From: Naegleria gruberi | Taxonomy: Eukaryota | DNA length: 1,705 nucleotides | Direction: 5' to 3' (one strand) | Assembly: GCA_000004985.1 (NCBI GenBank) | Contig: GG739342.1 | Part shown: piece by piece, positions 2 to 1,515 of the stretch | Numbering within the stretch: the first letter of the stretch is position 1 | Layout: each line of letters starts with the position of its first letter | The notes under the pieces: model-generated | Databases searched by the model: none | Told to the model about the DNA's origin: nothing | The model's input: the letters and a program-made list of their open reading frames with translations, nothing else | Program-made: the position numbers and the translations under genes

Positions 2-175
2 AACACGAATGTGGTAGCCGAAACTGATCTTGTTTCGAATGCAAGTACTCTTCCAACTGTACATCCTTTCTTCATCACCAATGGAAAAATCAAATTACAA
101 TGCAGAAATTTATTGTTGCGATCAAAATTCCGATCCTATCAATTGTATGACGAAAATAGATTTCACAGCATGTGA
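2..175 (+). CDS. Possible 3' portion of a protein-coding ORF entering from the left window edge (frame 2, 57 sense codons, no start codon in window, ends at TGA 173-175). It may belong to the same gene as the 172-561 ORF if an intron or frameshift joins them.
   Basis: Frame-2 translation from position 2 is open for 57 codons (NTNVVAETDLVSNASTLPTVHPFFITNGKIKLQCRNLLLRSKFRSYQLYDENRFHSM*) in AT-rich DNA where stops are expected every ~14 codons. It overlaps the start of the frame-1 ORF by 16 nt. It uses some codons that are rare in yeasts (CGA x2, TCG), so it may partly be UTR or intron rather than coding. Confidence 0.22.
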   Translation, partial: NTNVVAETDLVSNASTLPTVHPFFITNGKIKLQCRNLLLRSKFRSYQLYDENRFHSM

Positions 176-561
176 CGTTATGTCAAAGAATTAGTGGAAC
201 AATTTTGGAATTGGAATTAAAAACTCACAAATTTGAATTTACAACTCCAAATTTCTATAATTTGGAAATTAATGAATCTCATCCAGTTTTGTATCAATTG
301 ACAAGATTTGAATTGATTTTTCACAATCCTATTGCAGGAGATTTACTTTTGGAATTGAAGAAAGGTGAATTTGTAATTATTCCATTAATTTTGACACTTT
401 CTAATAGAAGATTCTTCTTTGATATTCAAATGAAAGTGGACGAAACTGGTGTAATTGATACAAACATTGAATCAAGAATTCCTTTTGGTAAACCAAATTC
501 TGATTGTGTATTACATTTCTCACAAATGGCGACTAGAACCAATGATAATCAATTATTCTAG
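172..561 (+). CDS. Hypothetical protein; a 129-codon open frame with strong yeast-like codon bias. The true 5' end is unresolved: the GTG at 172 is not a plausible eukaryotic start and the first in-frame ATG is at 430.
   Basis: Six-frame ORF track. Codon usage matches ORF2 (TTG/TTA Leu, AGA Arg, GAA, CAA, GGT, CCA, TCT). The amino-acid composition looks globular, with alternating hydrophobic patterns. In-frame stops lie upstream at 148-150 (TGA) and 157-159 (TAG). It ends at TAG 559-561 and is followed by AT-rich 3'-UTR-like sequence containing TAGTAT and AATAAT motifs. Confidence 0.42.
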   Translation: MTLCQRISGTILELELKTHKFEFTTPNFYNLEINESHPVLYQLTRFELIFHNPIAGDLLLELKKGEFVIIPLILTLSNRRFFFDIQMKVDETGVIDTNIESRIPFGKPNSDCVLHFSQMATRTNDNQLF

Positions 562-650: not shown

Positions 651-795
651 TTCGTTCACTTTCGTCCCAGATCAAATAATACCTAAAACAATTTATTAAA
701 ATATTAATTTCATTTACTTGAATATCATTTGTTCGGTGGAGATAAAAACGGTCCTTTTGCTACTAGGTCCCGAATCTCTTTTGATTGAAATTTCA

Positions 796-806
796 TATTT
801 TAATAA
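796..806 (+). promoter_or_regulatory. TATA-like AT-rich element (TATTTTAATAA) at about -18 to -8 relative to the 5S start. Possible upstream Pol III promoter element.
   Basis: Seen directly in the sequence. Upstream TATA elements are required for 5S transcription in some fungi (for example fission yeast). The position here is slightly closer than the usual -30, so this is speculative. Confidence 0.2.
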
Positions 807-813
807 CAATGAT

Positions 814-932
814 GGCTACGGCCATATCACGATGAATGCACCTCATCCCGTCCGATTTGAGAAGTTAAGCATCGTCGAGCCACATCAGTACTGAGGTTGG
901 AGACAACTTGGGAACCTGTGGTGCTGAAATCT
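814..932 (+). rRNA. 5S: 5S ribosomal RNA gene (about 119 nt), eukaryotic fungal-type, dispersed (not embedded in an rDNA repeat within this window).
   Basis: Conserved 5S blocks are present in the correct order and spacing: GGCTACGGCCATATC (5' end), GCACC, TCCCGTCCGAT, AGTTAAGC, AGTACT, GGTTGGAGACAAC, TTGGGAACC and GGTGCTG near the 3' end. ACGATG (830-835) and CATCGT (870-875) form a perfect 6-bp complementary pair where a helix is expected. A T5 run follows immediately. The start could be 811 if the preceding GAT is included. The comparison to fungal 5S sequences is from memory, not a database search. Confidence 0.85.
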
Positions 933-936
933 TTTT
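932..936 (+). terminator. RNA polymerase III terminator (T5 run) at the 3' end of the 5S gene.
   Basis: TTTTT at 932-936 directly after the GGTGCTGAAATC 3' helix-I strand. Runs of 5 or more T on the coding strand are the established Pol III termination signal. Confidence 0.6.
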
Positions 937-999
937 GTCTTAGAAAAATCTACAGGAGGCCTTTAGGTTTACAAAATTGGAGTTAAAAGGATTTACCAC

Positions 1000-1224: not shown

Positions 1225-1515
1225 ATGCCAGCTAGAAATACTTCATCAAATTCTTCCGAAGATAGAATTCCAACAAAAACAGTCTGGTCAAGATCTAAAC
1301 CAATTGATTTAACTAAAAGATTACCATTATTTGATATTGATACTTCAAATATTATAAGTGGAACTAGACATCGTAATAATATTGATTATCATCATGCAAA
1401 TTTAAATGGTAAACAAATTTCAGTGAAAAGATCTTCTAAAAATTCAATTGAAAAGAGAGCTAAACAACAATCAACCACCACAACAAAGAAGATTACCAAA
1501 TCGAAAAAGATGTAA
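1225..1515 (+). CDS. Hypothetical small basic Ser/Thr/Lys-rich protein (96 aa). No recognisable domain, possibly a nuclear or nucleolar protein.
   Basis: Six-frame ORF track. The ATG at 1225 is the first in-frame ATG after a TAA at 1201-1203. Start context is A-rich (gagcaaaATGcc, A at -3) with an A-rich 5' leader, typical of yeasts. Codon usage is yeast-like (AGA, CCA, GCT, ACT, TCT, GGT, CAA). TAA stop at 1513-1515 is followed by TGTAAATAA and AAATAAAATAA motifs. Confidence 0.5.
   Translation: MPARNTSSNSSEDRIPTKTVWSRSKPIDLTKRLPLFDIDTSNIISGTRHRNNIDYHHANLNGKQISVKRSSKNSIEKRAKQQSTTTTKKITKSKKM

Follow-up and report, generated by a model that had tools for sequence, protein, structure and literature searches.

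A full-length 5S rRNA gene with an imperfect terminal helix in the dispersed 5S family of Naegleria gruberi

Results

The 5S gene lies between two protein-coding genes

The stretch of DNA analyzed here, to which we refer as the window, is a complete 1705-bp scaffold of Naegleria gruberi with a GC content of 29%. It carries a 5S rRNA gene with coding genes on both flanks (Table 1), as described in the original prediction, which had been made from the letters of the sequence. The product of the upstream gene is 100% identical to XP_002668086 ('predicted protein, partial', Naegleria gruberi). Given that N. gruberi is a heterolobosean amoeboflagellate (Discoba, Heterolobosea) and not a fungus, this identity does away with the label 'fungal-type' that had been attached to the 5S gene. 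A counterpart of the upstream gene, XP_002678169 (237 aa), is found on a 467,654-bp scaffold and shows about 2% amino-acid differences as well as a 1-nt indel near position 166, where CAACAG of the main scaffold reads CACAG in the window. Positions 145-194 are either a 50-nt GTATGA...TTAG intron, the bounds of which are in the correct phase and the excision of which restores the frame of the gene, or a frameshift due to a 1-nt deletion relative to XP_002678169. If the segment is an intron, the indel may be harmless; its reading as a definite intron was downgraded because the gene model of the main scaffold reads through it. On both readings, the window represents a second haplotype, a recently duplicated copy or the low-coverage remnant of a locus that the main assembly also contains.

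The downstream ORF matched the Pfam CHZ family with 25.6 bits (cut-off 23.3) and its best homologue was N. fowleri FDP41_002142 (60% identity, E = 5.7e-25). It has homologues of equal length, and an exact look-up of the 96-aa ORF in the protein collection did not return it. Positions 1225-1515 are probably an unannotated small Chz1-like gene of N. gruberi.

Table 1. Features of the window and of the Naegleria 5S genes used for comparison
Feature	Location	Strand	Remarks
Upstream protein-coding gene, 3' part	2..561	+	N. gruberi 'predicted protein'
TATA-like motif TTCATATTTTAATAAC	792..807 (-22 to -7)	+	Counterpart upstream of both N. fowleri 5S genes
5S rRNA gene, full length, 119 nt	814..932	+	RF00001; 7 differences from the N. 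lovaniensis/N. fowleri 5S
Helix I, 5' strand GGCUACGGC	814..822	+	Identical in N. lovaniensis and N. fowleri
Helix II (827-834 with 870-878), loop B, helix III (838-847 with 854-865), loop C	827..878	+	Every pair canonical
Box A core GTTAAGC	864..870 (gene +51 to +57)	+	Internal control region; consensus from PMC3369914
Helices V and IV, loops E and D	879..922	+	Every pair canonical
Box C-like element GGTTGGAGACAACTTG	895..910 (gene +82 to +97)	+	Single match, 2 mismatches to consensus
Helix I, 3' strand GCUGAAAUC	923..931	+	A927, A929 and U930 against sister-species U, G and C
T5 run, Pol III terminator	932..936	+	First T aligned as last 5S residue
Downstream 96-aa gene, CHZ (histone-chaperone) motif	1225..1515	+	Orthologue of N. 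fowleri FDP41_002142
N. lovaniensis 5S	L004:10102-10220		Sister-species comparator
N. fowleri 5S copies	L007:14370-14488; L007:10540-10658	+; -	Sister-species comparators

The Rfam covariance model for 5S rRNA (RF00001), the check that had been suggested for this gene, matched with 96.4 bits (E = 2.9e-21) against a gathering score of 38 bits. The match lies inside the span 811-940 claimed originally and covers model positions 1-120, so that the gene is not truncated. No second Rfam match was obtained at E <= 1 anywhere in the window, hence no 18S or 25S, in agreement with the claim that the 5S gene is unlinked to other rRNA genes, and ARAGORN found no tRNA in the window. Loops A (CCAUA), C, E (AGUAC) and D aligned to the consensus at posterior probability 1.0 and their sequences were invariant in a 6-sequence alignment. 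Positions 814-932 are a genuine 5S rRNA gene.

Comparator genes and the changes in helices II-V

We compared the gene with four full-length or near-full-length 5S genes, one of N. lovaniensis, two of N. fowleri and one on an ENA contig. The N. lovaniensis and ENA genes were found beneath spurious ORFs by comparing a six-frame translation of the 5S gene with the protein collection, and the N. fowleri pair was found at the locus carrying the orthologue of the downstream gene. The four genes come from four unrelated loci and are mutually identical save one C>U in helix II of one N. fowleri copy, which still pairs as G.U. Their RF00001 scores are 101.7-104.9 bits. The window gene is identical to the N. 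lovaniensis/N. fowleri 5S at 112 of 119 positions (94%), the remaining seven being four in two swapped pairs of helix V and three on the 3' strand of helix I. Like the window gene, the sister-species genes are located among protein-coding genes, and they have in common with it the loops, helices II-IV, the 5' strand of helix I and the T-run terminator; they differ from it in having a perfect 9-bp helix I, other helix V pairs and genomic positions that are not syntenic with the window. As outgroups we used three 5S genes of non-Naegleria eukaryotes, the sole returns of a degenerate-pattern scan of metagenomes. Scans for exact patterns in the collections of prokaryote genomes and of viruses, run with host contamination in mind, gave no match.

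In the metagenome contigs of the three outgroups (L001-L003), which are GC-richer, the 5S gene is in tight linkage with further genes for small RNAs: 10 clustered tRNA genes in L001, genes for U1, U2, U5 and SRP RNA in L002, and genes for U2 and U5 in L003.

Mapping of the Rfam structure onto the sequence revealed that all 25 consensus pairs of helices II-V are canonical (27 pairs when the extras A829-U875 and A882-U919 are counted), and these pairs are also present in the unconstrained minimum free energy (MFE) fold. In the 6-sequence alignment standard pairs make up 98.6% of the pair cells, 19 pairs change on both sides, and two of the three non-standard cells are those of helix I of the window gene. 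The original prediction had drawn on the pairing of ACGATG with CATCGT in helix II. The pairing is real and CATCGT is indeed at 870-875, but ACGATG is located at 829-834 and not at 830-835. Covariation of this helix, which had been taken to argue for a functional RNA, does exist across eukaryotes, where 6 of the 8 pairs show changes on both sides. It is nevertheless uninformative on this particular copy, as the window gene has the same helix II as the clade of N. fowleri and N. lovaniensis. Judged from the alignment, the covariation that is informative on the lineage is that of helix V at 881-920 and 882-919, which had been missed: C881-G920 and A882-U919 stand where N. lovaniensis and N. fowleri have U-A and G-C, both swaps being compensated. 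Seven random substitutions would include two or more compensated double changes with a chance of about 5e-4, which shows that structural selection acted along the lineage. Loop B had been called unusual on account of GATGAATGCACC, which we located at 831-842 as predicted. The loop-B string GAATGCACC is common to N. lovaniensis, N. fowleri and the three unrelated environmental eukaryote 5S genes; being present in all comparators, it does not make loop B unusual.

The 3' strand of helix I carries uncompensated changes

The strands of helix I had been placed at 814-822 (GGCTACGGC) and 923-931 (GCTGAAATC) with about two mismatches in nine pairs. These coordinates are right and the number of non-canonical pairs is exactly two, C816·A929 and A818·A927. 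Two further pairs are G·U wobbles, including G815.U930, so that counting wobbles 7 of 9 pairs are standard. All four comparators carry a perfect 9-bp helix I, GGCUACGGC/GCUGUAGCC, and end in GCUGUAGCCU, whereas the 3' end of the window 5S RNA reads ...GCUGAAAUCU. The three changes relative to the sister species (T>A, G>A and C>T) are all toward A/T and confined to the 3' strand; none is compensated and two of the three break pairs. Uncompensated stem breaks, one of the marks of a pseudogene or relaxed copy, thus amount to three one-sided changes, two of them pair-breaking, with the sister species as the reference. Among the outgroups, the environmental 5S gene of L001 has a G.G mismatch in helix I.

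Since two of the substitutions break pairs, the terminal stem is predicted not to form alone. Helix I pairs with a predicted probability of <=0.002 in the window RNA as against about 1.0 in the N. lovaniensis RNA, and the energy of the isolated helix I duplex is -3.9 kcal/mol as against -15.1 kcal/mol. For N. lovaniensis the canonical 5S fold is the MFE fold (-44.2 kcal/mol), while that of the window RNA (-30.1 kcal/mol) lies 5.1 kcal/mol above its MFE (-35.2 kcal/mol). Pairing of helix I matters for 5S stability. A literature search for experimental mutagenesis of helix I returned nothing usable. The imperfect helix is consistent with the earlier suggestion of a variant or relaxed copy. Outside helix I there are no uncompensated changes in 110 nt, which is unlike a long-decaying pseudogene.

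Transcription signals

According to PMC3369914, the 5S genes of N. gruberi have an internal control region and an upstream TATA box, and TFIIIA is not identifiable in this organism. The window gene carries box A, a box C-like element and a T-run as consensus matches, the set of signals of a type 1 RNA polymerase III (Pol III) gene. The short core of box A alone is statistically indistinct and its relevance lies in its place within the gene. The box C-like element is expected 0.10 times by chance, and its two mismatched positions are those of the compensated pair U898-A905. The T-run is T5 in the window and T6 at the equivalent place in N. lovaniensis and N. fowleri. Upstream, the pattern TTCAT-N2-TTTA-N-TAAC lies at -20 to -5 of both N. 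fowleri 5S genes (L007 14350-14365 on the plus strand and 10663-10678 on the minus strand) and nowhere else in about 80 kb of compared loci. The pattern was derived post hoc from these same sequences, so its specificity is suggestive only; it is a candidate for a conserved upstream (TATA-like) Pol III promoter element, and the motif agrees with the TATA box reported for N. gruberi 5S (PMC3369914). A bacterial promoter and terminator scan of the window returned nothing relevant. With upstream motif, box A, box C-like element and T5 all present, the copy looks able to be transcribed, and probably it is.

The window gene in the 5S family of N. gruberi

In Naegleria, the 18S, 5.8S and 28S genes are carried only by a multicopy extrachromosomal circle (PMC5805870 and related announcements), and the 279 putative 5S genes found in the JGI assembly of N. 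gruberi are not located with the rDNA units (PMC3369914, PLoS One 2012). One would therefore expect a 5S gene on a chromosome to have no rDNA in its vicinity, and the framing of the original prediction, in which yeasts and filamentous fungi set dispersed 5S genes against those of the rDNA repeat, is inapplicable here. A search of the literature on the sequence string and on Naegleria 5S found nothing beyond PMC3369914. Its set is of the same organism and family as the window copy, and the paper is silent on helix I and on variation between copies.

The entry 'scaffold_816 817-933' in Table S1 of that paper is very probably the window gene. We matched it by coordinates and scaffold size, and the 117-nt BLAST span as well as the size rank of a 1.7-kb scaffold fit. 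BLAST spans in Table S1 start 3 nt inside the gene and end 1 nt into the T-run. The similarities listed fall into classes, of which the modal one (0.75) holds by our count about 161 copies and that of 0.7417 about 40 copies, including scaffold_816. The window copy hence very probably does not have the modal sequence and, unlike the bulk of the set, belongs to a minor class. Spacing between the listed copies is mostly tens of kilobases with occasional neighbours at 1.5-5 kb; the arrangement of N. gruberi 5S genes is dispersed with loose clusters.

The same paper scores the 5S arrangement as 'tandem' despite the copies of Table S1 being mostly tens of kilobases apart. It also describes an RNA of 118 nt with a T as +1 (Figure 2 legend, Table 1 of PMC3369914); this +1 appears to follow the BLAST start T817, whereas the covariance model sets the 5' end 3 nt further upstream, at G814.

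We then have the positions of 5S genes in the sister species. The 662-aa gene next to the N. lovaniensis 5S (L004) has an orthologue in N. fowleri (L006) that lies in a different gene neighbourhood and has no 5S gene within 10 kb on either side, and no 5S gene lies on the contigs where the downstream gene has its more distant homologues. At the CHZ-like gene, N. fowleri has a 5S gene 237 bp downstream on the opposite strand, while in the window the 5S gene is 293 bp upstream on the same strand. The N. fowleri pair (L007) is inverted and 3.7 kb apart, with protein-coding genes between the copies. Its two members have in common a 325-bp unit (-32 to +293, 99.4% identity) made up of 32 nt of upstream sequence, the gene and 174 nt of downstream sequence; of this unit the window has in common only -22 to +123. 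The pattern fits duplication at the DNA level and loss of small promoter-plus-gene units. Across the loci compared, 5S positions and local synteny are not conserved even between N. fowleri and N. lovaniensis, as fits turnover.

Discussion

The most likely reading, which we consider somewhat probable, is that this genuine 5S gene is a probably transcribed but minor and mildly degenerate variant of the dispersed N. gruberi 5S family. The copy is a nuclear gene, presumably transcribed by RNA polymerase III, and one of about 279 copies scattered among protein-coding genes in a dispersed family that would evolve by duplication and decay. It has retained its transcription signals and helices II-V while its 3' terminal strand carries three A/T-ward substitutions, and the variant RNA may be less stable than the RNA of modal copies or poorly built into ribosomes. 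Taking the sister species as the reference, we infer that the defects of helix I are specific to this copy. The helix is perfect in 4 of 4 Naegleria-clade comparators, the copy is not in the modal class and the one-sided, A/T-ward changes occur in a window of 29% GC. Truncation and loss of promoter or terminator, as in a pseudogene, are not seen: the gene is of full length with all signals present. Against a degenerate variant stands the similarity in Table S1, which is only 1/120 off the modal class, a gap that also fits a modal gene with most of the features of the window gene and possibly one of its mismatches too. Moreover, a protonated wobble is possible for C.A, and the stem might gain stability from proteins that bind 5S rRNA.

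The small gap to the modal class would also suit a normal, fully functional N. gruberi 5S whose mismatched helix I, or most of it, is typical of the species and held by ribosomal proteins in the 5S RNP, a reading that we regard as unlikely. Compared with a deeply diverged sister clade, the remainder of the gene shows perfect conservation or compensated changes, its promoter and terminator signals are all intact, and the environmental 5S gene of L001 tolerates its G.G mismatch. However, the stem is paired in every comparator, including the four Naegleria-clade copies, its predicted pairing probability in the window RNA is negligible, the copy falls outside the modal similarity class, and changes toward A/T on one strand are the signature of relaxed constraint, not of covariation. 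That N. gruberi ribosomes wholly or partly use a 5S with a C.A and A.A helix I that is unstable alone, either through the modal gene or through heterogeneous variants that are expressed and incorporated, we hold to be decidedly doubtful; if true, a stem that is universally paired would have been relaxed in an unusual way. The mismatches might, quite improbably in our estimate, stem from faulty sequencing or assembly of a 1.7-kb leftover scaffold of low coverage, with the real locus being normal. The scaffold nearly duplicates part of the 467,654-bp scaffold with its about 2% amino-acid differences, the 1-nt indel disrupts the neighbouring reading frame should the segment around it be coding, and the three changes lie within 4 nt near mid-scaffold, where the low-quality ends of two Sanger reads would presumably meet. 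Yet the changes are all substitutions, the 119-nt gene has no indel and is otherwise free of anomalies, and the indel of the neighbouring gene lies inside GTATGA...TTAG, where it is perhaps a harmless difference in intron length.

We weighed two further readings. A 5S-derived SINE-like mobile element or a retroposed pseudogene would accommodate the dispersal and high copy number of the family as well as the 325-bp unit of the N. fowleri copies, which is larger than the gene. We give it a very small chance, as the window gene covers the full 5S model and ends in a T-run with neither an appended body nor an A-tail, its upstream motif at a fixed distance points to DNA-level duplication together with the promoter, nothing of the downstream flank of the N. 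fowleri copies is found in the window, and a repeat scan found no repeats flanking the gene. That the locus is a dispersed fungal 5S gene, be it of a fission yeast, a filamentous fungus or a basal budding yeast, is practically out of the question. The flanks are AT-rich and the helix IV/V sequence GGUUGGAGACAAC presumably resembles that of fission-yeast 5S, but a fungal origin is refuted by the identity of the flanking protein to that of N. gruberi and by the N. fowleri gene that is the top homologue of the downstream gene, and the 5S itself is 94% identical to that of N. lovaniensis and N. fowleri.

In Neurospora, other filamentous fungi and Schizosaccharomyces, 5S genes likewise form dispersed families that evolve by birth and death and include variants and pseudogenes. 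As in N. gruberi, single copies lie there among Pol II genes, a modal type is accompanied by variants and decayed copies, and an upstream TATA-like element exists besides the internal control elements. The lineages are unrelated (Discoba versus Fungi) and the large rRNA genes of Naegleria, unlike those of the fungi, are non-chromosomal. The correction to the original prediction is one of taxonomy, the host being an amoeba and not a fungus, and dispersed 5S genes are the known state of Naegleria, where a family of about 279 copies has already been catalogued. With a helix I predicted not to form but its promoter signals and remaining structure intact, the window copy offers a modest, clear-cut case of incipient decay, or of variation that is tolerated, among dispersed 5S genes. 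If variants of this kind were expressed and incorporated they would bear on ribosome heterogeneity; nothing here suggests that they are.

The comparison also touched on the annotation of N. lovaniensis. The 'Kelch' gene model C9374_006095 (L004 10001-10933) overlaps the 5S gene on the opposite strand, and part of this model is probably spurious. The same 5S gene has an assembly gap of ten N bases at 21-30 nt upstream.
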